Shown one piece after another: positions 6,604-53,164 of a DNA stretch of 64,000 nt (position 1 is the stretch's first letter; every line of letters begins with the position of its first letter). The translations under genes were made by a program, and so were the position numbers. This stretch comes from Leptolyngbyaceae cyanobacterium clean351 (GTDB lineage Bacteria; Cyanobacteriota; Cyanobacteriia; DAIDHW01), in assembly GCA_027451865.1 (NCBI GenBank), contig DAIDHW010000007.1, forward strand, positions 18,050 through 82,049. Direction: 5' to 3'. Below the pieces are notes generated by a model. That model worked only from the letters and a program-made list of their open reading frames with translations, was not told where the DNA came from and searched no databases.

Positions 6604-8199
6604 ATGGCTCAGGCCCCGGTTTTCCCTGTGGTGTTGGTTATCTTAGATGGTTGGGGCTACGGAGAAGTTGCACCAGGTAATGCCATTGCCGCCGCCTCTA
6701 CCCCAGTCCTTGATAGCCTTTGGCTCACCTATCCCCATACCCTCCTACAGGCATCAGGAAAGTCCGTGGGCTTACCCGAAGGTCAGATGGGTAACTCGGA
6801 GGTTGGCCACCTAAACCTCGGAGCAGGCCGGGTAGTGCCCCAGGAGCTGGTGCGAATTTCTGACGCCGTTGAGGATGGTAGCCTCCTCCACAACCAAGCT
6901 CTAGTGCAGGTTTGTGAAAAGGTCCGGTTGGGTGACGGTAAGCTGCACCTAGTGGGCCTGTGTTCTGAGGGGGGAGTGCACTCCCACATCAGCCACCTCT
7001 ACGGTCTACTAGACTTAGCCGCAGCCCAGGGCTGTCAGGATGTGTGCATTCATGCCATCACCGATGGCCGTGACACTGCCCCCACAGCAGGGAAAGCCAC
7101 CCTAGAGTCCCTCCAGGCGCACCTAGAACGCACTGGCCTTGGACAAATTGTCACCGTCAGTGGCCGCTACTACGCCATGGACCGAGACCATCGCTGGCCG
7201 CGGGTTGAGCAGGCCTACCGGGTAATGACTGAACCGGGAACCCCCACGTGGCAGGGGGCGGCCCAGGTGTTACAGACTGCCTACGATCAAGGCATTACGG
7301 ATGAGTTTATCCCCCCAGTCCGCCTAGCTCCAGGGGTGATTGCCCCGGGAGATGGGGTGATTTGCTTTAACTTCCGCCCGGACCGCTCCCGCCAACTTGC
7401 CCAAGCCTTTGTGGACCCCCTCTTTACTGGTTTTAGTCGGGAGTTAATTGCCCCTTTGGCTTTTGCCACCTTTACCCAGTACGACTCCTCCCTCCCCGTC
7501 TCAGTGGCCTTCGAAGCCCAGAACCTCAGCCATATTTTAGGGGAAGTGATTGCTCACCGGGGACTGCGGCAACTACGGATCGCAGAGACGGAAAAGTACG
7601 CCCACGTCACCTACTTTTTCAATGGCGGGCTAGAGGATCCCCTCCCTGGGGAAGACCGGCAGCTGATTCCCAGTCCCCTGGTGGCTACCTACGACCAGGC
7701 TCCGGCCATGGCCGCAGGGGAGGTAACCAAGGGAGTGACGGCAGCCCTCAACCAGCGGGTCTACTCCCTAGTAGTAGTTAACTATGCTAACCCCGATATG
7801 GTTGGACACACGGGTAATTTGGCCGCTACCATCGAGGCGGTAGAAACCGTAGACCGTTGTTTGGGAGAGCTACTCCAGAGCGCCCTGCGGGTAGGGGGAA
7901 CCGTCCTCATTACCGCTGACCATGGCAACGCTGAGTACATGGGGGAATTTGATCAGCCCTGGACTGCCCATACCACTAACCCCGTACCCTTTATTCTGGT
8001 AGAAGGGGAAAAATTGAAAGTCCCCGGCCATGGGGGCCAGGTAAACCTCAGGCAGGATGGCCGGCTGTGCGACGTCGCCCCTACGATTCTGGAGGTTTTG
8101 GGGCTACCTATCCCCCCCGCCATGACCGGTCGCTCTCTTATCCTGCCTGCCCCTGCCGATCTGAATACCCATCGCTCTCCCGCCCCCCTTACCCTTTAA
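6604..8199 (+). CDS. gpmI: 2,3-bisphosphoglycerate-independent phosphoglycerate mutase
   Basis: ILDGWG, GQMGNSEVGH, NFRPDR, ETEKYAHVT, NPDMVGHTG, TADHGNAE. Confidence 0.95.
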   Translation: MAQAPVFPVVLVILDGWGYGEVAPGNAIAAASTPVLDSLWLTYPHTLLQASGKSVGLPEGQMGNSEVGHLNLGAGRVVPQELVRISDAVEDGSLLHNQALVQVCEKVRLGDGKLHLVGLCSEGGVHSHISHLYGLLDLAAAQGCQDVCIHAITDGRDTAPTAGKATLESLQAHLERTGLGQIVTVSGRYYAMDRDHRWPRVEQAYRVMTEPGTPTWQGAAQVLQTAYDQGITDEFIPPVRLAPGVIAPGDGVICFNFRPDRSRQLAQAFVDPLFTGFSRELIAPLAFATFTQYDSSLPVSVAFEAQNLSHILGEVIAHRGLRQLRIAETEKYAHVTYFFNGGLEDPLPGEDRQLIPSPLVATYDQAPAMAAGEVTKGVTAALNQRVYSLVVVNYANPDMVGHTGNLAATIEAVETVDRCLGELLQSALRVGGTVLITADHGNAEYMGEFDQPWTAHTTNPVPFILVEGEKLKVPGHGGQVNLRQDGRLCDVAPTILEVLGLPIPPAMTGRSLILPAPADLNTHRSPAPLTL

Positions 8200-23779: not shown

Positions 23780-24922
23780 ATGGCTTCCTCCCCCCCGACC
23801 AAAAAATCCCCTAAGGGAACGGTAGTAGTCCGCAACTTCCAAGGTAGACTACGCCTGGTCTGGTCCTTTGGGGGTAGGCGTTATTGTCTGTCAACGGGGT
23901 TTCCCGACGGCAAGGTCAACCGTCTGGCAGCGGAGGCCAAGGCGCGCCAGATTGAGCTGGATATGATTACGGGTAACTTCAACCCGACTCTGGAGAAGTA
24001 CGATCCCCGCCGTTCCCTCAAAGATAAACCCGTAGAGCTGGCAGCGATTCCTTTGTTGGAACGGTTTATTCTTCACAAACAAAAAGAAGTCTACCACCGC
24101 ACCCTAGAAAAGTACCGGACGGCTCTCGAGTACCTACGGCAGTTTCTAGCTCAGGACTCCCGACGCGTCCTAGACGTGAAAAGTGCCGAACGCCTAGTGG
24201 ATTATCTACGTCCCCGCTTGGCTCCCGTCACCCTCAAGGAGCGTTTGACCATCTACGCGGCTGGCTGGCGGTGGGGGGTGGAGCAGGGGTTGGTGACAAG
24301 TAACCCTTGGGAAGGTTTGCCCGGGAGAGTCAAGGTACCCCCTAAACAGATGCCCCGGCCCTTCACCCAAGGGGAGGTAGAGGCAATTCTCCAGGGGTTT
24401 CGCGAGCACCCCCGTTACTGTCACTACAGTGATTTTGTCAGTTTCCTCTTTGGTACCGGTTGCCGGACTGGAGAGGCGATTGGCCTGCGCTGGGGACATC
24501 TGCACCCGGATTGCTCCGGGGTCTGGTTTGGTGAGAGTATTTCCCGGGGGGTGAGAAAGGCTACCAAAACTAATCGAGCCCGGTCAGTGACTTTACCTAA
24601 AAGCCTGCAAGTCTTGCTGCTGGCCCGACGGCCCCAAGACCCCCACCCAGACGACCTAGTATTCACTGCTGCCTGGGGTGGGATTATCAATGACCACAAC
24701 TTTCGCGACCGGGTTTGGAAACCCGTACTGCAACTAGCAGGGGTGGATTACCGCAAACCCTACACAACCCGCCACACTCTTATTAGCCATGCCCTAGCCA
24801 TGGGTATGGACCCGGTCACCCTAGCGCAGTTAGCCGGCCATGACGTGGAGACTCTTTACCAAAACTACGCCGGTTCGGTAAGTTCTCGGCCGCGGTTACC
24901 GGATATGTTGTCAGGAGGATAA
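23780..24922 (+). mobile_element. Tyrosine recombinase/integrase with N-terminal arm-DNA-binding domain
   Basis: N-terminal GRLRLVWSFGGRRY.LSTG..D...NR..AE..A.QIE.D; catalytic residues GCRTGEA (R), KATKT (K), YTTRH, LAGH, QNY. Confidence 0.92.
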
Positions 24923-25574
24923 TCACCGTAAAAAAGCACGCTCTGGGGGGGAGGCGGACCGGTTTGGGGTCAAGATTCGCCCTGTGGCCTTCCTGAGGCA
25001 ATCTGCCGCCATCAGGTACAATCCCAAGTGCCTACCCGGAATCAGCGGTTTGAGGGGGTTTTAGGCCTAAGTATATATGCTCACTAGTGTAGTGTGGCTC
25101 AGATCTACTCCGCCGGGTCTGGGGAGTTGGTCTATCCCCGGTCACCCTCAGAGCTACTCCTGATAGAGCCGGGAAAAAAATTGAAATGAAAATGAGATGC
25201 TTGTTTCTAGCCTAACCGCTAAATTACTTTCTAGCATGGTTTTTAGAGATTTACGCTCCACTGGACAGAAGTGGAGTTCAGTTGCTCCCAGGGGGAGTGA
25301 CGGGCTCAGGTCTCGAAGCTTAGGGCAGTCCCAGGGGGAAAAGAGGGCAGCGTGGACTTCCGGGGGCGGTGCTCGGTAAGACTATCCCCGCCAATGGGCC
25401 GGCGGTAAACTCCCTCAGCAGAAGATCTAGCAGGAGGCGGGGCTGTGGGAATCACCACGAGAAATCGACCACTTGTTGAGTAAGCGATGGACTTCCTAGA
25501 GGCAGGCCGCAAGATTGGGGAGGTGCCCCGCTCAAGCCGTCGGGGAAATTAATTCTGGTGGGGTTGGCTTGGTA

Positions 25575-25610
25575 GTCTCTGACCAATTAGTATCCCCGAC
25601 AAGTAGGAGC
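25575..25610 (-). repeat. Highly degenerate CRISPR repeat abutting the stop codon of the roadblock-like gene
   Basis: GCTCCTACTTGTCGGGGATACTAATTGGTCAGAGAC vs GTCCCCACTCGCTGGGGACATCAATTGAATGGAAAC: 22/36 ungapped, nearly all mismatches are transitions. Confidence 0.65.
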
Positions 25611-25987
25611 TAGAGTTTGAGCTTGAATTCTATCTCTTGCAGTTTAATCAAAGTTATCCCCAGGTTGCCATCGTGGCGGCTTACGGCAACGTAAAAGAAC
25701 AGCCCATACAAGTATTTAGTCAAATGCATGAGATGATACTGAGTCTCAAGGGTAATGGTGATGTCTTCAATTTTGTCCTTAAAGCCAAGAGCCTCAGCCG
25801 CCCTGGCTTTTGCCCGAATCACTTCTGTGTTGACAGCAATTGCTAGGGCCAGTTTCTGCTTGGGAAAAAGGGGGCTATCAGTACCTGTGTAATCGAGACA
25901 GGTACCATTTTTCCAATCCCCTAGGGCGGCCCCGAAAACACCATTGAGAGCTACTAGCTCTTCTAAACATTGACGAATATTTGACAT
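25610..25987 (-). CDS. Roadblock/LC7-like (profilin-fold) small protein
   Basis: L..L..LNG..GAALGD...G..L, NTEVIRAK......LG..DKIEDI.ITL..QYHL, LFFYVAV.R...NLG pattern. Confidence 0.7.
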   Translation of the reverse strand: MSNIRQCLEELVALNGVFGAALGDWKNGTCLDYTGTDSPLFPKQKLALAIAVNTEVIRAKARAAEALGFKDKIEDITITLETQYHLMHLTKYLYGLFFYVAVSRHDGNLGITLIKLQEIEFKLKL

Positions 25988-26163
25988 GACGACTAACAGC
26001 CTGACGATAGGGTTTCTATGGAAGTAATGAGAGTGTTCAGATTATAGAGTATGTTAGTTTTGTGGTCATCTCAACTGCCCTCACCCATGAAGTTTTGTAA
26101 GGGCCTAGGGGGGAAGTCGGGTTGACCATGGCGCGCACCACTCCCGAGGGAAAGAATCCCTAA

Positions 26164-26212
26164 TTTATACCACTTTATACCACGATCCCACACCGTCGGG
26201 GCGAGAGAACTT
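26164..26212. repeat. Direct repeat TTTATACCAC x2 plus tRNA-Pro-3'-like fragment (putative att remnant)
   Basis: 10-mer at 26164-26173 and 26174-26183 (variant at 26277-26287); minus strand of 26195-26212 reads AAGTTCTCTCGCCCCGAC. Confidence 0.45.
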
Positions 26213-26293
26213 AGGACCTCGAGGTACTGGTCCGATGGATCACCAAGTCAAAGTTGAGGCGAGAATGGAGGGCGTGTTTATAACCACTCCTAT

Positions 26294-26591
26294 GACTCCT
26301 AGGCAGTGGCTATGCTGGCTGAAAAGACCGGCTCCCGCCCATGGCCCCCTCCTCCCCGCCCAAGAAATCCCCCAGGAGAATGGTAGTAGTCCACAACATT
26401 AGACTGCGCTTATTCTGGTGGTCCTTTGGGGGCAGGCGTTATTGTCTGTCGACTGGGTTTGCTACGGCAAGGCCAACCGTCTGGCAGCGGAGGCCAAGGC
26501 GCGTCAGCTTCAACCCGACTCTGGAGAAGTACGACCACCGCCGTTCCCGCAAAGATAAACCCGTAGAGCTGGCGGCGATTCCTTTATTGGA
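26294..26591 (+). pseudogene. Truncated, frameshifted duplicate of the integrase 5' region
   Basis: Clear nucleotide similarity to 23723-24060 (upstream sequence, MA.S.P.KKSP, WSFGGRRYCLSTGF, FNPTLEKYD, DKPVELAAIPLL) with indels; no catalytic domain. Confidence 0.88.
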
Positions 26592-27084
26592 TCTGGAAAC
26601 AGCTCCCCCGGTAATTGAGGTTGTGGTAGCCAGGATAAATCATCGGAATCACGGTGGGGATGGGCTGGTTGGGGTTAGCTCCAGGTTGGTGGGGATCAAC
26701 AGGCTGGACGAAACACTGACCAGAACTAGGTATGGCAGAATCGTAGACCCCAATGATGAAGGTCTTGTATCGTTGTGCCACCTGAGGGGTGACGGTTAGG
26801 GTGTAGGCACAGTTGGCACCATTCTGAGTCACGGTGCCTGGGAATAGGCGGTTGGACTGGTTATCGACACCAAAGACCGTGATCGTGTTGCAAGACCGAC
26901 CCGGGAATATGGTGCCGGTGACGGTCGTATATACTGTCCGCTTATACGGAGGGATAGTAGGAGTGTAGCGGTAGCCAGGAGTATATGTGGGGGCAAGGGA
27001 TGGGTTAACTTGCGCCAGGGAGGGGGAGGCTAAGGTGATGGCACCAAGGCTAGTGAGGCAAAATGTGGTCAGTAGTAGCTTCAT
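26584..27084 (-). CDS. Hypothetical secreted protein (166 aa, cassette 4)
   Basis: Signal peptide MKLLLTTFCLTSLGAITLASPSLA-Q, Pro/Tyr/Thr-rich linker, four Cys in the mature part; the longer start in the ORF track runs through a repeat. Confidence 0.7.
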   Translation of the reverse strand: MKLLLTTFCLTSLGAITLASPSLAQVNPSLAPTYTPGYRYTPTIPPYKRTVYTTVTGTIFPGRSCNTITVFGVDNQSNRLFPGTVTQNGANCAYTLTVTPQVAQRYKTFIIGVYDSAIPSSGQCFVQPVDPHQPGANPNQPIPTVIPMIYPGYHNLNYRGSCFQIQ

Positions 27085-27117
27085 AGGAGTGTGAAAAGGT
27101 TTTCTTAAATCTCGTTT

Positions 27118-27224
27118 ATTACCATTCGACTTATATCCCCAGCGAGTGGGGATTGTCAACATGCTCTTGTACTCAAGACCAGGGCTACCATCCCCTTGAA
27201 TTAACATCCCCGGTAGATCCGCAA
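27118..27224 (-). CRISPR. Degenerate mini-array (repeat, 35-nt spacer, repeat)
   Basis: 27118-27153 matches the consensus 29/36; 27189-27224 matches 19/36 ungapped; 71-nt period is close to that of the main array. Confidence 0.7.
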
Positions 27225-27358
27225 TAGGCACTGTAAAGGAGGGCAACTAGTCCAGGCGGGGGCAGACTTGGCGACTAATTCTCAACTTGGGGAAGATGAG
27301 GAGGGGGCCTCGAATAAAACCCGAGGGATATTGGCGTTTATCCCCCGCCTCAGGCAAG

Positions 27359-27733
27359 TTAAGGGGAACTAAGGTAGGCCCAATCAAAGCAGTAATGATT
27401 GCCGTTTACCATTACCCCGCAACTGGCGTGCAGGTTGCCGATGCGATGGGAGTATCCTTTCTGGGCCACTGTCACAACTTGGTCAAACCAAGTGGTCACT
27501 CCCGGGGGAAAGGTCTGCTGGGAGTCAACATGAGCGATATTCATAAAGCTATCATCTTCAGCTGAACCGTCGTAAACTCGGAAGATTGATAACTTTACCT
27601 CGTGCTCACTAACAGGCTGAACCGTGACACACATTGCGGAGTCACAGTGGGTGGTGGAGTCGGCCCGGACTGGTAAGGCCAGGAACAAGGAACCGGCAGT
27701 TGCCAGTGATAACAGGATGTATTTTCTCAGCAT
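27359..27733 (-). CDS. Hypothetical secreted protein (124 aa, cassette 3)
   Basis: Signal peptide MLRKYILLSLATAGSLFLALPVRA-D, four Cys, GGAG RBS upstream. Confidence 0.7.
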   Translation of the reverse strand: MLRKYILLSLATAGSLFLALPVRADSTTHCDSAMCVTVQPVSEHEVKLSIFRVYDGSAEDDSFMNIAHVDSQQTFPPGVTTWFDQVVTVAQKGYSHRIGNLHASCGVMVNGNHYCFDWAYLSSP

Positions 27734-27843
27734 CAGCTATCTCCAGGGATTCTTACAGGGTATATTTCGTACAAGCATATTATCAAGACTCATTAACTAA
27801 GATCAATACTTAGAATGACTTAGCCAAGAGATTGGTATCTTAG

Positions 27844-27882
27844 ATTTCCATCAGCTAAAAGACGTCCCCGGGGAGTAGGGAG
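27844..27882 (-). repeat. Degenerate CRISPR repeat
   Basis: + strand ATTTCCATCAGCTAAAAGACGTCCCCGGGGAGTAGGGAG: retains TTTCCAT, and the last 22 nt match the consensus 17/22, with a 3-nt insertion. Confidence 0.6.
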
Positions 27883-27924
27883 CCTCGTAGGTGTTTGGTT
27901 TGCTCCCACGTGGGAGCGGTTACT

Positions 27925-28158
27925 TCACCCCCGCACTAACTCCCACAAGCCGGGATCCTCCCTTGCTGGAATAAAGGTGTAACGGCAGGTGAAGAACAGG
28001 GTAACCTGCATTTGCAACACGGCAGTGTGCTCCTCTTTGACTATCCAGCGGTACTTGTGTTGAATGCCCCCTTGATTGGAGTTAAGGTGCTCAGCCTAGG
28101 CAATGAGAGTACGGGGCACGTTATCGCCAGGCCAGTTAGAGGGTGATAATACCACCAC
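27925..28158 (-). pseudogene. 77-codon small gene (cassette 2) with in-frame TAG at codon 21
   Basis: TATAAT (28187-28192), AGGAGG (28164-28169), GTG at 28158; MVVLSPSNWPGDNVPRTLIA*AEHLNSNQGGIQHKYRWIVKEEHTAVLQMQVTLFFTCRYTFIPAREDPGLWELVRG; aligns with cassette 1. Confidence 0.7.
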
Positions 28159-28209
28159 GTAAGCCTCCTATAGGTTAGTTACTATTATTATAATACAAAT
28201 CCCCAGAGT

Positions 28210-28245
28210 CATGCCATTCAATTGATGTCGCCAGCGAGTGGGGAC
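28210..28245 (-). repeat. Near-consensus CRISPR repeat separated from the array by a 309-nt insert
   Basis: CATGCCATTCAATTGATGTCGCCAGCGAGTGGGGAC, 32/36 identical to the consensus. Confidence 0.92.
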
Positions 28246-28252
28246 TACATAC

Positions 28253-28487
28253 TCAATCGTTTTCGCCTTGGAGCCTGTAACCCCCGTCTACGAGTATGAG
28301 TACATATGTGTACAGCACACCGTATACCGAGAGCGTTAACACGACCGACTTGTCATCACGTACCGTTTGGCCTAGCACGCGGTGTCTGATACCCCACGTA
28401 GCTATTTTGGGTCAAACAACTGCGCCACTCTTGGAGGCTATAGACCGTGTCTGGATCGGTATACCAACTTCCCGGTTTGTAAGGCAT
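28253..28487 (-). pseudogene. 77-codon small gene (cassette 1) with one extra base in a G4 run
   Basis: TTGTCG-N18-TACAAT (28545-28516), GGAGGAGG (28492-28499), ATG at 28487; removing one G at 28392-28395 gives MPYKPGSWYTDPDTVYSLQEWRSCLTQNSYVGIRHRVLGQTVRDDKSVVLTLSVYGVLYTYVLILVDGGYRLQGEND. Confidence 0.7.
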
Positions 28488-28554
28488 ATCGCCTCCTCCA
28501 TCGATTTACAGTCCCATTGTAGGACGTTTGCATCATCTCCGACAATCTGCCGAT

Positions 28555-30409
28555 GTTTCCATTCGTCCATTCAATTGATGTCCCCAGCGAGTGGGGACGC
28601 GGACCTGGCCCTTGCCGGGAAGGTGGCCGATTTCTTGGGTTTCCATTCAATTGATGTCCCCAGCGAGTGGGGACCAGGAAGGTATCCAGGCTGGCTCCCG
28701 CGTTCACCCAAGTTTCCATTCAATTGATGTCCCCAGCGAGTGGGGACTCCGTTGTTCTCCGGATACTACCGGGAACTTTTGAGGTTACGTTTCCATTCAA
28801 TTGATGTCCCCAGCGAGTGGGGACATAGTAGAGCCCAAAACTGGCTCGGTCAAAAAAGAGATTGTTTCCATTCAATTGATGTCCCCAGCGAGTGGGGACG
28901 TTCTCTCCTTTCGAGGAGAAATCTCCCCCTTCAAAAGTTTCCATTCAATTGATGTCCCCAGCGAGTGGGGACATGGAAAGTTCGACAGCAAAGGACGCTG
29001 GTACCCCAGGTTTCCATTCAATTGATGTCCCCAGCGAGTGGGGACCTAGCCCTGGACGAACTAATCAAGGAAATCAGTGGCCAAGTTTCCATTCAATTGA
29101 TGTCCCCAGCGAGTGGGGACAAGGTAAACTCAAACCCGCTTCCGGGGCGGGTCCCCCGTTTCCATTCAATTGATGTCCCCAGCGAGTGGGGACCTTAAGC
29201 AAATCAATGCGCAGTACCACTTGGCCAGGCAGAAAATGTTTCCATTCAATTGATGTCCCCAGCGAGTGGGGACAATCAGGTTCTGGTTGGCGGCGTAAGC
29301 TGTGCTGTCCCCCTGGTTTCCATTCAATTGATGTCCCCAGCGAGTGGGGACAGGGGATAACAGACGAGCCCAAGACGGGGTTAGTCAAGAGTTTCCATTC
29401 AATTGATGTCCCCAGCGAGTGGGGACGGGCTACGGGGTGACCCGGTTTCCGCAATTCCCCAAACGGTTTCCATTCAATTGATGTCCCCAGCGAGTGGGGA
29501 CCTGAACGTTACCTCGCATTGAAGAACCGTCAAGTTGACCCTGGTTTCCATTCAATTGATGTCCCCAGCGAGTGGGGACACTCAAGGGCCGTACTATTTA
29601 CGTGGTCTTCGACCAGGATTGTTTCCATTCAATTGATGTCCCCAGCGAGTGGGGACCACCCCCCACTAAGGAGAACCAATGGAAGCCCTAACTCAACAGT
29701 TTCCATTCAATTGATGTCCCCAGCGAGTGGGGACCAAAAAGGCAATTGGCAGTATTTGGGTATCTGCCCAGATGTTTCCATTCAATTGATGTCCCCAGCG
29801 AGTGGGGACAATACCGTCTAACGCTAAAGCGGCTTATCTTGAGCCGGTTTCCATTCAATTGATGTCCCCAGCGAGTGGGGACACAGTAACGGCTAGCGGC
29901 TGGTACTAAGAGTGGTACTAAGTTTCCATTCAATTGATGTCCCCAGCGAGTGGGGACCGCTTGAGAGCCACCCGAGATGCTAGGCCAAATCCCTGTTTCC
30001 ATTCAATTGATGTCCCCAGCGAGTGGGGACCGTGGAATAACTGCGGTAGCCATAATAATATTTCGATCTAGTTTCCATTCAATTGATGTCCCCAGCGAGT
30101 GGGGACTGCTCTGCATGTCGCAGAGGAGTACGGGGTAGAGGTCGCGTTTCCATTCAATTGATGTCCCCAGCGAGTGGGGACATGGTAGTAGACCTTGCCC
30201 CAGAAAAGGTCTGCCTCGTAAGTTTCCATTCAATTGATGTCCCCAGCGAGTGGGGACAAGACGGAGCCTTCCGTCTGGGACCAGCCACGGACCTCCAAGT
30301 TTCCATTCAATTGATGTCCCCAGCGAGTGGGGACGTGGAAGAAAGGGGCGGGATGCCTGTACTGGGCAAACATGTTTCCATTCAATTGATGTCCCCAGCG
30401 AGTGGGGAC
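28555..30409 (-). CRISPR. CRISPR array: 25 repeats of 36 nt and 24 spacers of about 37-44 nt; repeat GTCCCCACTCGCTGGGGACATCAATTGAATGGAAAC (cyanobacterial type III-like)
   Basis: Identical repeats counted from 28639 to 30409 plus a terminal repeat with an internal duplication at 28555-28598; GTCCCCA/TGGGGAC hairpin and 3' GAAAC on the minus strand; degenerate end at the low coordinate. Confidence 0.98.
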
Positions 30410-30660
30410 CCTACCCCTATTAGAGCACCATCCAGACTGGATTACAAGTCCTGTTTGCGACAGGTCGGCAAAGTGACCAGGGCGGCGGGGGAATTTTCCG
30501 TGGCCAAAGGGCCAGAACCCTTACCAGAGGCCAAGTCGAGGGGCTCAACGAGTTTGCTGGCATTGGGGGGATTTTGGCTACCTGTCGCGGATCCACTAAT
30601 GTTGATAGCAAATGCAGAAGTTTTATTATTAGCTTACAACATGAAATATATTTCTTTAGT
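30410..30660 (-). promoter_or_regulatory. CRISPR leader
   Basis: Non-coding and adjacent to the intact array end; inverted repeat GCGACAGGTCGGCAAA (30457-30472) / TTTGGCTACCTGTCGC (30573-30588); AT-rich distal part. Confidence 0.7.
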
Positions 30661-30907
30661 CAGCCCCCATATCCGCGGATAGAGAGGCATGACCAGACCG
30701 CCTACAATCAGACCGAGCTTGACCTGGCTATGGTTTGGACCATTCTGTAGATTGAGGCGCCGGCATTACAGTCATCCCCGACCAGATGCAATGGGCTTGC
30801 CACTAAGGACCATAAAATCACCATAATCACGGGAGGAAAAAGACCCACCCCTGAAGAAATCGCCTTTTATGAACCCCTAGTGTAAATCAGCGGCGCCGCG
30901 CCCGTGG

Positions 30908-31275: not shown

Positions 31276-32691
31276 ATGAATACTTGGCTGGTAACTACTG
31301 GCAGCAGTGACGTCAGATTAACCACTGACCAGCTATGGGACTCCTGGGGTGAGTGCCAGTTTAAGCCTGCCAAGGTGCGCAATCTTTACAGTGTCCCCTC
31401 CCGGGCCCTGGGAATGGTCTATCAAAAACACCCAGACCAGGTGTGGCCGTACCTAAGTTTTCCCCTCCTGAAGGAGTTCGCCAGGCAGCTCCAAGCTGAT
31501 GGAGTTAACCTCAGCCAAATTATCTTCTTCACCACCGACCAGCAGGCCATCTTTAGTGAACAGGAGCGTGATCAGGGAGAAAAATGCCCCTACTGGAAAG
31601 ACACCTGCACCCTAGAGCCTGTTTTTCGCCGCCTCTTTGAACAGCTGTACCCCGGAGCGGTCGTAGTCCCCAAGCTGATCGCCCCCCAAGACCCCCAGGC
31701 CGGGGTAGATGATTGGAATGCCATGCTTGACTTAGTAGCAGACCAACTCCGGGAGGTCACGGCCTCAGGGATTGTCTACGTCAGCCACCAGGCCGGCACC
31801 CCCGCCATCTCCTCAGCTTTACAGTTTCGCACCCTGGCAAAGTTTGGCCGGCAAGTCCAGTTCCTGATAGGCAATGAGTACAGCTCAAGCAAAACTCGTC
31901 TAATCAACAGTCCTGCCTACCTGCGCAGTCTCCAGCTGCAAGAAGCTAAGGCGATGCTCAGACGTCACGACTACACTGGTGTGCGGGACCTCCTCGGCAT
32001 TGGTTCTCAAGAGGAAATAGCGGCCCCCCTAGAGGCAGCGATTCAGTGGAACTTTGCCAACTTTGATCAGTTTGCCCAAAAGATCGGCCGTCAACCCGAA
32101 TGGTGGCGCATTGGCTATGAAGCCGCCTACTTGGCTACCGTGCGGCTTGAACAGGGCAGCCCTACCGAAGCATTCTTCCACGGTTTTCGGGCAGTGGAAG
32201 GGTTAATGTTGACCTGGGCGAGTGAGAGATTTGCCGCCCACATTGAAGAGCCCAAGCGCTCCTGTCCATTTCTGAAGCAATCGATTCTTGAGGAGTTGCC
32301 TAACTATCTTCGGGCGCAAGGGGATAAGCGTGATGAGCGTAGGCAAAGGCTAAGGGAGTCTCTCCTGGGTGATGGCAGAATCGAACTATCTAGCTTCCAA
32401 CTCTACGAGCTCCTGCGCGAAGGTCAGCCAGAGGGCCAGGAGCTATGTTCAGACCTGGAAACCTTCGAAAATAGGATTGCTCCTCGACGCAACCTTCTGT
32501 TCCACCGTCTGCGGGGATTGGAGACCAAAAAACTCCTTGAAGAATGGAAAGTAAAGACTGAGCAGGAGTGGAGAGACCGCCTGTTAAGGCTACTGAATTT
32601 TATTAGTGGGGAGAACTTTAGCTCCCTAGAAGCTGCCAGTCACCTACCCGCGGTACACGCCCAGCTAGGCCAGATGCTTGAGTACCTGTAG
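31276..32691 (+). CDS. CARF-HEPN CRISPR ancillary nuclease (Csm6/Csx1-like, cyanobacterial type)
   Basis: N-terminal LVTTGSSD, FFTTDQ, WKDT and VYVSHQAGTPAISSAL CARF-like motifs; FRAVEG; C-terminal R-N-x3-H (RNLLFH); next to the CRISPR leader. Confidence 0.75.
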   Translation: MNTWLVTTGSSDVRLTTDQLWDSWGECQFKPAKVRNLYSVPSRALGMVYQKHPDQVWPYLSFPLLKEFARQLQADGVNLSQIIFFTTDQQAIFSEQERDQGEKCPYWKDTCTLEPVFRRLFEQLYPGAVVVPKLIAPQDPQAGVDDWNAMLDLVADQLREVTASGIVYVSHQAGTPAISSALQFRTLAKFGRQVQFLIGNEYSSSKTRLINSPAYLRSLQLQEAKAMLRRHDYTGVRDLLGIGSQEEIAAPLEAAIQWNFANFDQFAQKIGRQPEWWRIGYEAAYLATVRLEQGSPTEAFFHGFRAVEGLMLTWASERFAAHIEEPKRSCPFLKQSILEELPNYLRAQGDKRDERRQRLRESLLGDGRIELSSFQLYELLREGQPEGQELCSDLETFENRIAPRRNLLFHRLRGLETKKLLEEWKVKTEQEWRDRLLRLLNFISGENFSSLEAASHLPAVHAQLGQMLEYL

Positions 32692-32913: not shown

Positions 32914-34650
32914 ATGACTGCCTCCCTATCCCTATTCACCCGTGCCCCCGGACCGCAGCGGCTGTTTTGGTTTGGTCTGAGTATAGGCTTTGCCATCTTC
33001 TATGCCAGCCTTGACCTTAAGCAAGCCTTCGCCCATGAGTACGTAGTGCAAGGGGATACTCGCGCCTACCTGGTAGCTCTTTCAGGTTTGCTAGGGGGGA
33101 ATCTGGTCCCCCACGACTGGATTGCAGACTACTATGCCTCCGTTAGTCCCTGGGGGTTTACCCAACTCTACCTGCTGATGGCTCACCTGGGAGTGGCACC
33201 CTTATTATTCAGTAAGATCCTGCCCCTGTTTCTGGAGGTGGCCGCTACTATTTACGGGTTTTTCCTAGTCCAGGAAATGTTTCCTGTTCCCCTAGCGGGC
33301 TTTATCGGGACCCTACTCCTTAATCAAGGTCTTGGTATTCACGATGATATAGTTTCCGCCACCCCCAGGGGATTTATCTATCCTCTTTTACTCGGTTTTA
33401 TGTATTATCTAGCCCGCAGCAGCTGGCCAGGGGTAGCCTTATTTTCTCTTCTGTTAGGATTATTCTTCCCCATTGGGGTCCTTTTGAGTTCCGCGCTTCT
33501 AGCTTTGAGACTAGTCATGGCTTGGTTAGGCTGGCGGCCGCGGGAGCTGCCGGTCTACATTGCCGGTCTGACTGTTTCCCTAGCTGTAGTCCTTTCCTAT
33601 CTGCTCAGTGAATCTCAGTTTGGGCCTACAGTCACCGCTGCCATGGCCAGGCACTGGCCGGAATACCAGCCCCATGGTCGTTGCCCTTTTTTCAACCCTA
33701 ATCCTTGGATCTATTGGTTTCGCGGTTCTGGCAGTAGCTTCCGTTTAGCCATCAACCCCCCTGCTACCGCCTTAGCCTTCCTGCTGCCTTGGCTGCCGCG
33801 ATTTCGGACCAGATTGCCCCTAGGCCAAAAGCTCGGCCCCGCGGTCTGGCTGCTGCCGGAACTCGCTTTGGTTTCCTTAGCCTGGTTCTTTGCAGCCCAG
33901 GCCCTTCTATTTCAACTTTATCTCCCCTCCCGCTACACCGAACACAGCTTTCGGATCATTCTGGCTTTAGCCGGGGGGATTGCCCTAGTGATCCTCGCGG
34001 ACGGGGTACTAAACTGGGTTAGCCAATCTCCTGCCCTCGGCAAAACCCTAGCAGGCTGGGGTGCACTTCTCGGGGTGGGCTTGACTACAGTCTTTTACCC
34101 GGCCCTGTTTTGGTCCCCCTTTTTCCCGATTACCCTGGATGTAGTGAGCCCCTACCCAGCCCTATACGAATTTTTCCGTAACCAGCCTAGTCATACCCTG
34201 GTGGCCTCCCTGGCCGATGAAGCCAATAATGTGCCAGTGTTTGCCCAGCGGTCAATCCTGGTGGGATGGAAGTACGCTGACCCCTACCACCTACGCTACT
34301 ACCAAGAGATCCGGGAACGGGCCACAGACTTGATCAAGGCCCAGTACAGCCCCACCATGGCTGAGCTGGAACTATTCCAGCTAAAGTACCCCATCACCCA
34401 CTGGCTCCTGGACGAGTCGGCCTTTGACCGGGGTTATCTGGAAGCTAACCAATGGATTCAGCAATACCAGCCAGCAGCGGCCAAGGCCGAGGCCCTGATC
34501 AATCGGGGCCTCAAGCCAGCCATAGCTGAGCGAGTCGAGCACTGTACCGTCCTGCACACCCAGGGGTTAATCGTCCTCGATGCTCCCTGTCTAACTAATA
34601 GCCCTGCCCGGCACTCCCACCACCCCGCAACTAATTTACTGACCGAGTGA
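32914..34650 (+). CDS. Polytopic membrane protein, probable GT-C-type glycosyltransferase
   Basis: Many TM segments, VQGD.R motif in the first loop, LYLPSRY; translationally coupled to a GT2 gene. Confidence 0.6.
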   Translation: MTASLSLFTRAPGPQRLFWFGLSIGFAIFYASLDLKQAFAHEYVVQGDTRAYLVALSGLLGGNLVPHDWIADYYASVSPWGFTQLYLLMAHLGVAPLLFSKILPLFLEVAATIYGFFLVQEMFPVPLAGFIGTLLLNQGLGIHDDIVSATPRGFIYPLLLGFMYYLARSSWPGVALFSLLLGLFFPIGVLLSSALLALRLVMAWLGWRPRELPVYIAGLTVSLAVVLSYLLSESQFGPTVTAAMARHWPEYQPHGRCPFFNPNPWIYWFRGSGSSFRLAINPPATALAFLLPWLPRFRTRLPLGQKLGPAVWLLPELALVSLAWFFAAQALLFQLYLPSRYTEHSFRIILALAGGIALVILADGVLNWVSQSPALGKTLAGWGALLGVGLTTVFYPALFWSPFFPITLDVVSPYPALYEFFRNQPSHTLVASLADEANNVPVFAQRSILVGWKYADPYHLRYYQEIRERATDLIKAQYSPTMAELELFQLKYPITHWLLDESAFDRGYLEANQWIQQYQPAAAKAEALINRGLKPAIAERVEHCTVLHTQGLIVLDAPCLTNSPARHSHHPATNLLTE

Positions 34651-51997: not shown

Positions 51998-52104
51998 GGA
52001 GGGGACCTGGGACGGAGGGGGGATATTGCCTGGATCTATGTCTTTGATGCTACCATCAGTGTTACTGTCTGGGGTAGACGATGCCCAGTAGTACAAATAA
52101 ATTT

Positions 52105-52192
52105 CCGGGGAGCCTGATTCTTAAGGGGGAACACCGGTGCAAATCCGGGGCTGTGCCGCAACTGTAAGCCTAACCGCAAGCCAGAATGCCCT
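52105..52192 (+). ncRNA. Cobalamin riboswitch
   Basis: AAGGGGGAACACCGGTGCAAATCCGGGGCTGTGCCGCAACTGTAA...AAGCCAGAATGCC B12-box, directly upstream of cbiX; ends approximate. Confidence 0.9.
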
Positions 52193-52240
52193 TTCCCGCG
52201 TCCTCATCATTCCTGCGATGCACAGGAGGAGAAGTGTTGA

Positions 52241-53164
52241 ATGTCTGAGTTTTGCTTTTCTCGGCCCCTCCTACTAGTCGGTCATGGCAGCCGTGACCCC
52301 CAGGGTCAACAGGACTTCCTCAACTTTGCTGCCCACTATCAAGCCCTCGAACCCAGCCGGCCCGTGGCTGCCTGCTTTTTGGAGTTGGCCACCCCCCCCA
52401 TTGGCGAAGCCGTCGAAGCCCTAGTCTATCAGGGGTACCGACAATTGTCGGTGGTGCCCCTGCTGCTGTTTGCCGCTCAACACCACAAGCTAGATATTAC
52501 CCGGGAGTTAGACCGGGCCCGGCAGCGTCATCTGAACCTGCAAATGCACTACGGTCGACCCTTGGGAGTAACACGGGAGATGGTAGACCTATGGCAGCAG
52601 CGTCTGGAGAACCTTAACCAAAGCCCCGATGCTCCCCCCCGGAGAGAAACGGTATTACTATTTGTTGGCCGGGGCTCTAGCGATCCGGACGCCAACGGGG
52701 ACACCGTCAAGCTAGCCCGCCTCCTCTGGGAAGGGAGTGGTTACCAAGGGGTGGAAACTTGTTTTATTGGCATTACTCATCCCCGGCTGGAGGCAGGCCT
52801 AGAGCGCGCGCGCTCCCATCATCCCAAACGGATTATTGTTGTCCCCCATCTGCTCTTTACAGGGCTCCTTGGCCAAAAAATTAAGCAGCTAACAGTCCAA
52901 CATCAGCTCGCCTACCCCCAGATCCAGACCCTCTGTCTACCGGAGATGGGTTTGCACCCTAACCTGTTTGATCTCCTGAGACAAAGAGAGCAGGAAACCT
53001 ATGCCGGTCCGGTGGCTATGAACTGCGACCTGTGTAAGTTCCGACTCCCCGGGAACTTGGCTCACCCCAAACCCCATCATCACCACCATGACCACAGCCA
53101 CGAGGTGGTACAGGATCCCTATCAGGAACCGGCGGTTTACCACGATCTGGTTTGGCAGCCATAG
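52241..53164 (+). CDS. cbiX: Sirohydrochlorin cobaltochelatase CbiX (long form)
   Basis: LLVGHGSRD, CFLEL, VGRGSSDPDANGD, MNCDLCKFR, His-rich tail. Confidence 0.92.
   Translation: MSEFCFSRPLLLVGHGSRDPQGQQDFLNFAAHYQALEPSRPVAACFLELATPPIGEAVEALVYQGYRQLSVVPLLLFAAQHHKLDITRELDRARQRHLNLQMHYGRPLGVTREMVDLWQQRLENLNQSPDAPPRRETVLLFVGRGSSDPDANGDTVKLARLLWEGSGYQGVETCFIGITHPRLEAGLERARSHHPKRIIVVPHLLFTGLLGQKIKQLTVQHQLAYPQIQTLCLPEMGLHPNLFDLLRQREQETYAGPVAMNCDLCKFRLPGNLAHPKPHHHHHDHSHEVVQDPYQEPAVYHDLVWQP

Follow-up and report, generated by a model that had tools for sequence, protein, structure and literature searches.

What lies beyond the last regular repeat of a CRISPR array, and how did it get there? Programs that detect CRISPR arrays go no further than the final regular repeat, so the far side of the trailer is seldom examined. 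The question was raised by a 64,000-nucleotide (nt) stretch of the genome of Leptolyngbyaceae cyanobacterium clean351 (GCA_027451865.1, contig DAIDHW010000007.1, positions 18,050 to 82,049), referred to here as the window, in which a CRISPR array is followed by a series of decaying repeats set apart by gene-sized DNA, next to a tyrosine integrase gene. A sequence-only reading had taken this layout for a possible gene-capture system in which CRISPR repeats serve as attachment or boundary sites for cassettes and/or as Cas6 sites that cut out individual mRNAs. Repeat copies do continue beyond the regular array, gene-sized intervals with describable contents do lie between them, and the layout recurs in other arrays. 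The explanation that we favour, with moderate confidence, is that the window holds the fossil trailer of a type III-B-associated (III-Bv-like) array, which collected insertions where they were harmless. The contents were orphan open reading frames (ORFs), broken frames, a chromosomal gene and an integrase fragment, not tidy cassettes, and an integrase-driven gene-capture machine was not supported.

Repeats of the array and its trailer

The source genome is a draft of 48 contigs, 98.8% complete, with a guanine-plus-cytosine (GC) content of 57.1% +/- 3.8. Three of its arrays, A1, A2 and A3 (the window array), share one 36-nt repeat that reads GTTTCCATTCAATTGATGTCCCCAGCGAGTGGGGAC on the plus strand. 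In the window, 24 perfect copies of this repeat, separated by 23 spacers of 37-44 nt, were found at 28639-30409 on the minus strand. They were followed at 28555-28598 on the same strand by a 25th repeat, which is whole but has 8 nt duplicated internally within the 3' tail (sequences judged by eye). The part of this copy at 28563-28598 matched at 33/36 positions ungapped, with an edit distance of 2 and a model expectation value (E) of about 1e-9 (1.2e-9). The count of 25 regular repeats made from the sequence alone was correct, 24 of them being perfect and one near-perfect.

The regular spacers of the three arrays were all 36-50 nt long (65/65), and no end bias was found in them. A leader of about 280 nt (30410-30690, minus strand), delimited by alignment of the three leader-side flanks, was conserved next to the start of each of the three arrays that carry the GTTTCCATTCAATTGATGTCCCCAGCGAGTGGGGAC repeat, indicating that the CRISPR RNA is the minus strand, as had been proposed, and that the decayed repeats lie at the trailer end. 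The array therefore has the constant-length direct repeats, regular spacing, unique spacers and leader at the acquisition end by which CRISPR arrays are recognised.

Five further repeat copies, all on the minus strand, had been proposed beyond the array, and their significance was assessed by whole-genome scans and a repeat model. Ungapped matching over the whole genome returned about 1640 sites of at least 19/36, about 120 of at least 21/36 and about 30 of at least 22/36, genuine copies included. In an edit-distance scan of the whole genome (4.97 million strand-positions), sites with an edit distance of 9 or less were confined to the trailers of the three arrays carrying this repeat. A covariance model was built from the repeats of five other genomes, the consensus of this genome and the decayed copies of A1 and A2; all decayed or candidate copies of the window were excluded from it, and it was run unfiltered over both strands of the whole window (128 kilobases (kb) of strand).

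Judged by these scores, two of the five copies can be called certain, two probable and one doubtful. The two that passed clearly, at 28210-28245 (32/36, edit distance 4, E 8.8e-7) and 27118-27153 (29/36, edit distance 7, E 8.1e-9), stood far above background. A probable copy with small insertions at 27844-27882 matched at 21/36 ungapped (at 27847) and scored 10.6 bits in the model (E 1.2); its edit distance of 12 was marginal, with about 0.12 such sites expected by chance per 3 kb. The probable last copy, at 25575-25610 (22/36), scored 14.8 bits (E 0.098), whereas by unweighted edit distance it was no better than background. These two sites were the top two sub-threshold model matches in the 64-kb window on either strand, and both fell on the array strand within the 3-kb trailer. 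The remaining site, 27189-27224 (19/36), was at background level by score and gave no match to the model at E up to 10; its sole support was its 35-nt distance from the copy at 27118, and it is a doubtful repeat. Counted away from the leader, the matches ran 33/36 (28563), 32/36 (28210), 21/36 (27847), 29/36 (27118) and 22/36 (25575), showing that the decay gradient is not monotonic.

Three repeats standing directly before long inserts (28555-28598, 27118-27157 and positions 7664-7705 of locus L001) appeared to carry duplications or insertions of 8, 4 and 6 nt, respectively, in the 3' tail. As judged by eye, these small changes were placed just before the final AAAC.

Contents of the intervals

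The intervals between the decayed repeats measured 317, 327, 619, 35 and 1507 nt, close to the earlier estimates of about 310, 330, 620, 35 and 1500 nt. The long ones (317-1507 nt) were outside the spacer length range of 36-50 nt. Their GC content was 47-52%, compared with 57.1% +/- 3.8 for the genome, and no match of the interval DNA was found in plasmid and phage collections.

The first interval (28246-28562, minus strand, 317 nt, GC 49.8%) held a promoter-like site, a Shine-Dalgarno-like run and an ORF of 43 amino acids (aa) at 28356-28487. This ORF continued in another frame only, a frameshift being needed to read 28253-28487, and no gene was verified. The second interval (27883-28209, minus strand, 327 nt, GC 50.8%) held a 77-codon frame (27925-28158) with an in-frame TAG, for which no homologue was found among 5.8 billion clusters. 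The two frames had been described as paralogous 77-codon genes. This description failed, one frame being interrupted by the stop codon and the other by the frameshift; when they were compared, the N-terminal parts showed no significant similarity (p 0.39) and the C-terminal parts a weak one (p 0.01), and DNA alignment showed nothing alike beyond the repeats.

The third interval (27225-27843, minus strand, 619 nt, GC 49.3%) held an orphan 124-aa ORF (27359-27733, minus strand) between a promoter-like site at 27806-27779 and a terminator-like hairpin at 27347-27322. The ORF had no relative in 400 cyanobacterial genomes, and a search of 1.84 billion representatives gave one weak partial match only. 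The last interval (1507 nt) was a composite of an orphan 167-aa ORF, a truncated integrase copy and a conserved 125-aa gene. The 167-aa ORF (26584-27087, minus strand) abutted the cut end of the integrase copy, and no relatives of it were found. Both orphans began with signal-peptide-like sequences as judged by eye, in agreement with the two secreted proteins that had been reported on the minus strand.

The 125-aa hypothetical protein (25610-25987, minus strand; segment GC 47%) had 47 relatives about 55% identical to it, widely present in hot-spring or thermophilic cyanobacteria. The gene was thus confirmed as conserved; its proposed likeness to Roadblock/LC7 proteins is a possible lead only, and a comparison with the PDB gave no match.

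Promoter-like sites stood ahead of four minus-strand ORFs, and a terminator-like site followed one. The total count (10) was not significantly higher than in shuffled sequence (5.4 +/- 2.6). A search of 24900-28700 against Rfam returned nothing at E up to 1. The 35-nt filler between the sites at 27118 and 27189 (27154-27188) had two perfect 16-nt matches in the genome, at C3:78569 and C1:881847; both fell inside unrelated genes and are probably due to chance.

Directly beyond the last probable repeat lay a 335-nt non-coding element (25238-25572). It occurred exactly twice in the genome. The second copy (C1:1019178-1019496), with 83% identity, lay beyond the last gene of the III-B locus of A1, and both copies had the same orientation relative to the array. 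No Rfam match was found for the element, and its folding was not unusual (z -0.5 and -0.7). Homology between the 125-aa gene and the gene beside the second copy was considered and rejected (E 23).

Other arrays of the source genome

Gene-sized inserts between terminal repeats were present in all 4 arrays of the genome with assembled trailers. Array A1 (C1:1031528-1033831, 31 repeat copies) belongs to a complete locus in the order csx1, csx18, cas1, cas2, leader, array, cmr2 to cmr6, csx1, with all genes on the array strand. Its trailer ran from the array to chrA (a 1746-nt interval), a repeat-spacer-repeat unit, three small ORFs (784 nt), a second repeat-spacer-repeat unit, yccF (632 nt) and a last repeat before cmr2, and all of these trailer genes lay in the array sense direction.

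In A2 (C1:488706-489653, 13 copies), a thiosulfate-dehydrogenase-like gene occupied 1056 nt between two decayed repeats. On either side of it stood a 330-nt block made up of decayed repeats and fillers and duplicated at 85% identity (C1:489694-491420). One of the fillers was a dispersed 117-nt element that had partial copies at four other places. A truncated repeat was also found in A2, and a frameshifted TnpB gene lay just beyond the trailer. The fourth array, of a different repeat family, is assigned to contigs C12 and C3, the C3 part probably continuing from C12. It adjoins cas4-cas1 and cas2 and has a 1565-nt interval that holds an SDR gene and is followed by two decayed repeats. No long gap was found in the 97-repeat array at C1:763181-770351, and the inserts of the three arrays with the GTTTCCATTCAATTGATGTCCCCAGCGAGTGGGGAC repeat shared no DNA similarity.

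A Uma2-family gene lay beyond the trailer of the C3 array, and Uma2 genes were also seen beyond a lone repeat in another cyanobacterial genome (G006).

Recurrence in other cyanobacteria

The repeat core was present in 53 of the 401 cyanobacterial genomes searched. The sample comprised 21 arrays of this repeat family with the trailer in view, plus the two arrays of other families in the source genome; arrays were chosen from the best or first-listed matches, not randomly, and one genome (G036) was dropped since the contig ends before its trailer does. Gene-sized intervals between repeats near the trailer end were observed in 7/21 arrays, namely A1, A2, A3 and one each in G007, G006, G020 and G079, so that outside the source genome the layout occurred in 4/18 related arrays.

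The array of G007 had three intervals of 280, 936 and 1145 nt with perfect flanking repeats. They contained a Dopa-dioxygenase-family gene, next to it a truncated ribonucleotide-reductase small-subunit gene that retained the first ~40% (Pfam positions 5-126 of 281), and a 316-aa ORF; no second copy of these inserts was found in the G007 genome. A 967-nt interval with perfect flanking repeats and a 192-aa ORF was found in G006. In G020 the terminal repeats started 685 nt apart with an antisense XisI gene between them, and the 786-nt interval of G079 held an antisense 199-aa ORF. Orientation outside the source genome was mixed (4 sense and 2 antisense intervals), and we do not claim a sense bias as a general rule. 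Two apparent internal gaps were rejected as gene inserts, a 3.3-kb gap in G302 being masked N and one in G020 being an IS21 insertion sequence (IS).

The trailer bias was strong. The 14 long intervals that were not IS elements, in 7 arrays, all sat within the last few repeats (14/14), and none was found among several hundred regular spacers.

The 40 comparison genomes were all related to the source genome at class level only. Closer relatives were sought through a metagenome scan anchored on csx1 and a scan of genome contigs for the integrase, and none was found.

Probable insertions in a fossil trailer

The explanation that we favour would work as follows. A working array, consisting of the leader and 25 repeats, would be transcribed on the minus strand, with its oldest repeats downstream and decayed to 32/36, 29/36 and about 22/36. 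Foreign or rearranged DNA of 0.3-1.5 kb would have lodged between these old repeats over time, bringing orphan genes low in GC together with broken frames, part of an integrase gene and a conserved gene from the chromosome. Inserts may persist in a trailer because no useful spacer downstream is silenced by them and because the flanking repeats have become too diverged to recombine them out. They would then be secondary and not the product of a dedicated system.

Several observations argue for this explanation. One is the decay gradient of the repeats away from the conserved leader, although it is not monotonic. Two broken frames, two orphans, a composite interval, low GC and promoter-like or terminator-like sites of their own mark the contents of the window as debris rather than cassettes. 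Rearrangement of A2, the TnpB gene beside it, the truncated gene of G007 and the IS21 inside the G020 array are further signs that junk gathers in trailers. The strong trailer bias of the inserts counts in the same direction, as do the late-sitting Tn7-like transposons that target cyanobacterial CRISPR arrays: 4/11 of these elements sit between the last two repeats, a late position that, the authors argue, limits harm (PMC11837452). Finally, the occurrence of the layout without an integrase in A1, A2 and the C12/C3 array counts for passive accumulation.

Other results weigh against the fossil trailer. In the source genome, 9/9 ORF-bearing intervals were in sense orientation, and among intervals of all genomes with genes supported by Pfam or NCBIfam the figure was 5/6. 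Flanking repeats were perfect or near-perfect in G007, G006 and G079, showing that inserts are not confined to decayed repeats. Most inserts were bounded by whole repeats and fitted tightly around complete genes, unlike random fragment insertion. No transposase was found among the interval ORFs, and no direct or inverted terminal repeats were found in 13/13 intervals (lowest uncorrected p 0.043, inverted). Given this lack of direct or inverted end repeats, integration through spacer homology (Campbell) and duplication-forming transposition were rejected.

If trailers do nothing but accumulate junk, they would be safe harbours for foreign DNA and would provide a baseline for claims about array-targeting elements.

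Possible capture of DNA between repeats

A second explanation, which we regard as unlikely, is that the repeats themselves mediate capture, gene-length DNA entering the array as an oversized 'spacer'. It could do so through Cas1-Cas2, which would duplicate the repeat at insertion, or through homologous recombination between a repeat of the array and a circle carrying one repeat. Inserts would survive only if acquired while the array was short, and would thus be left at the trailer.

The borders agree with this explanation. In 13/13 intervals, a whole repeat was followed by the insert and another whole repeat, with no other target duplication and no terminal inverted repeats, and the flanking repeats of G007, G006 and G079 were perfect or near-perfect. 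The repeats flanking the A2 gene shared derived changes, as did those around yccF in A1 (judged by eye); adjacent repeats share derived changes anyway, so that sharing across an insert does not discriminate. The cas1-cas2 pair adjoins the leader of A1. The 330-nt duplicated block around the A2 insert is what a single-crossover (Campbell-type) integration of a circle would leave, but the duplication reaches well past the repeat, which is not expected of Cas1-Cas2. Against capture also stand the tight length range of the regular spacers and the state of the cargo: random long fragments should mostly bring cut genes in either direction, whereas most inserts hold whole genes. In the literature searched for such a layout, no precedent for kilobase spacers was found. 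Clean repeat borders, perfect flanks in three genomes, tightly fitting whole genes and, in the source genome, a uniform sense direction lend the capture idea some probability.

A stronger form of it appears distinctly improbable to us. It would hold that, in arrays of this III-B-associated family and of one or more further families of the source genome, whole genes are taken up and come to lie between duplicated repeats, either because Cas1-Cas2 acts on long DNA or because circles recombine repeat with repeat, that the genes are expressed in sense from the leader and that RNase E cuts the repeats, the whole forming a CRISPR-derived gene-capture platform at the birth or tail of an array. If uptake through repeats were true, the adaptation machinery or repeat recombination would do more than is now credited to it, and arrays would be linked to gene acquisition.

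Possible roles in RNA processing and regulation

The decayed repeats might instead be kept as functional RNA signals, either as sites at which RNase E (or Cas6) would free mRNAs from a transcript started at the leader, or as regulators of the CreTA or crlRNA type acting on the neighbouring genes. For one cyanobacterial III-Bv repeat, which has a stem-loop at its 5' end and a tail that is single-stranded, Cas6-independent maturation by RNase E and RNase J has been described (PMC12464536). The window repeat, 36 nt with a 5' stem-loop and an AU-rich 3' tail as judged by eye, fits the III-Bv shape, and RNase E may cleave it. The sense orientation of the genes in the source genome and the repeat-spacer-repeat mini-units between the A1 inserts, possibly also at 27118/27189, would agree with such a role. 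Stand-alone regulatory CRISPR-like repeats, CreTA and crlRNA, are described in two preprints (bioRxiv 10.1101/2023.03.03.530964, 10.1101/2024.12.27.630466); these too are degenerate repeats outside an array near small genes, sometimes arranged as repeat-spacer-repeat units.

The sequences themselves gave little sign of a maintained signal. Across 17 repeat copies, stem pairing was 81.2% compared with 82.3% in shuffled sequences, with no excess covariation in the hairpin. The four mini-array spacers had no partial match near adjacent genes or promoters, unlike the guides of CreTA and crlRNA, and their best genome-wide matches did not surpass what a control spacer gave, two 16-nt matches inside unrelated genes excepted. 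The type III context and the gene-sized intervals further set the window apart from those systems. The ORFs carry promoter-like sites of their own, one of them also a terminator-like hairpin, and several of the 'genes' are broken. Retention of the decayed repeats as RNA signals is accordingly considered very unlikely. The proposal that Cas6 cuts out individual mRNAs was not supported: this repeat family comes without a Cas6 gene, none lying at A1 or in the window and the one Cas6 of the genome sitting in another system, and the hairpin showed no covariation.

Integrase, transposons and assembly

The intact tyrosine integrase (23780-24922, plus strand) and a partial copy of it (26302-26591, plus strand) were both present as reported. 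The intact protein has an Arm-DNA-bind_2 domain (phage-type arm-binding) and a Phage_integrase domain. The truncated copy consists of the upstream 40 nt and about 85 codons; it was recognised from direct repeats (D3-D6), aligned at 79% over 318 nt in blastn and was 79-94% identical to the intact gene over pieces.

These two genes invite a model in which the integrase uses CRISPR repeats as attachment sites in the manner of an integron or a prophage. An intact integrase and a partial copy stand within the series; as in an integron, a repeat able to form a hairpin recurs between small genes of one direction, and a tyrosine recombinase bounds the series on one side. The genome, 98.8% complete, gave no PF00589 match other than this integrase, which makes action in trans on all arrays conceivable. 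The Streptococcus phage PhiAP1.1, an integrase-bearing element tied to a CRISPR array, is cited as integrating at CRISPR repeats in PMC11837452.

Other results count against this model. The integrase scored 22.7 bits against the integron-integrase model TIGR02249, with a cut-off of 265, and its arm-binding domain is typical of integrases of phages and of integrative and conjugative elements (ICE). The window thus lacks an IntI-type integrase, and it also lacks a structured site bounding every cassette: of the five proposed boundaries two are certain, two probable and one is background, and the CRISPR repeats show no conserved pairing. The ORFs have promoter-like sites of their own, in a number not significantly above that in shuffled sequence. 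Unlike in PhiAP1.1, no repeat-like sequence was found beside either integrase copy in a model scan of the cysC-to-integrase stretch and the region upstream of the partial copy, and no phage genes or phage DNA matches were seen between the window repeats. The partial copy ended exactly where the segment of the 167-aa ORF starts, indicating that the integrase gene was itself a victim of rearrangement. Nor is an integrase linked to the layout wherever it occurs. Since PF00589 matched the source genome only once, no such gene lies near its three further arrays of this layout, and in G007, G006 and G020 a distance of at least about 100 kb separated the tyrosine recombinases from the arrays. Of the original gene-capture reading, repeat-bounded gene-sized DNA proved real and recurrent, whereas the integrase machinery did not find support. 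We think it highly improbable that the integrase drives the layout; it appears to belong to a separate, rearranged integrative element adjoining the trailer and not to be a cassette recombinase. No second, XerC/XerD-like PF00589 match was seen in the whole genome at E up to 0.001.

The inserts could also be remnants or non-autonomous derivatives of array-targeting transposons, Tn7-like or other, that were moved in trans and then decayed. According to PMC11837452, the cyanobacterial Tn7-like elements enter the array at a spacer without disrupting the repeats and always keep one orientation relative to the array, and the inserts described here share with them the intact repeats, the fixed orientation and the frequent late position. 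The published elements encode TnsAB, TnsC and TnsD and carry no cargo genes (PMC11837452). Here, by contrast, no Tns-like domains were found in the interval ORFs, neither the inserts nor the genome yielded a Tns gene, and transposon ends and terminal inverted repeats were not found; TniQ/TnsD was absent from the source genome, and none scored over the cut-off in G007, G006, G020 and G079. We give this origin very little credence.

An artefact of chance matches, or of misassembly joining the array to unrelated DNA, is scarcely to be believed: three arrays with identical repeats and similar leaders could produce a chimeric array-trailer join, and one of the five proposed copies (27189) is at background level, but the decayed repeats are unique and lie within unique DNA, so that they cannot stem from repeat collapse, sites with an edit distance of 9 or less occur genome-wide only in array trailers, and the same layout is present in the complete single-contig genomes G007 and G020.

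Relation to known arrays

In most respects the window array is like an ordinary III-B or III-Bv-like array. It shares with such arrays the 36-nt repeat with a stem-loop and AU tail, the leader, spacers of 36-50 nt and the decay of the oldest repeats; of cas genes, cas1-cas2 and cmr2-6 lie at the sister locus A1 and csx1 alone beside the window array. Unlike an ordinary array, four arrays of this genome hold 0.3-1.5 kb of gene-bearing DNA between terminal repeats. Trailers with degenerate repeats, arrays that carry IS elements, transposons that target arrays and a phage that integrates into repeats are already known. In the literature searched, we found no account of recurrent gene-bearing intervals between terminal repeats without transposase and integrase.

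Gene surroundings

A csx1-type CARF-HEPN gene encoding 471 aa (31276-32691, plus strand) diverges from the array leader and is the sole cas-associated gene adjoining the window array, indicating that the array is not strictly orphan. It was identified by PADLOC (CARF1--CARF_HEPN E 9.5e-116, Csx1 E 4.6e-90), a Pfam search of the protein gave no match, and it shared 34% identity with the csx1 of A1, where the III-B locus is complete. Relatives of the protein at 39% identity were found at two loci in metagenome or genome sequences (L027, L028), where they also adjoin CRISPR arrays, of other repeat families. A 578-aa protein encoded directly after csx1 (32914-34650, plus strand) had no Pfam or PADLOC match and could be an unrecognised type III accessory gene.

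The region is flanked by housekeeping genes, with purH, a HAD hydrolase gene and cysC on one side and a glycosyltransferase gene and gyrA on the other. At 52090-52213 on the plus strand, upstream of an ORF at 52241-53164, lies a cobalamin riboswitch (Rfam RF00174, 39.3 bits).

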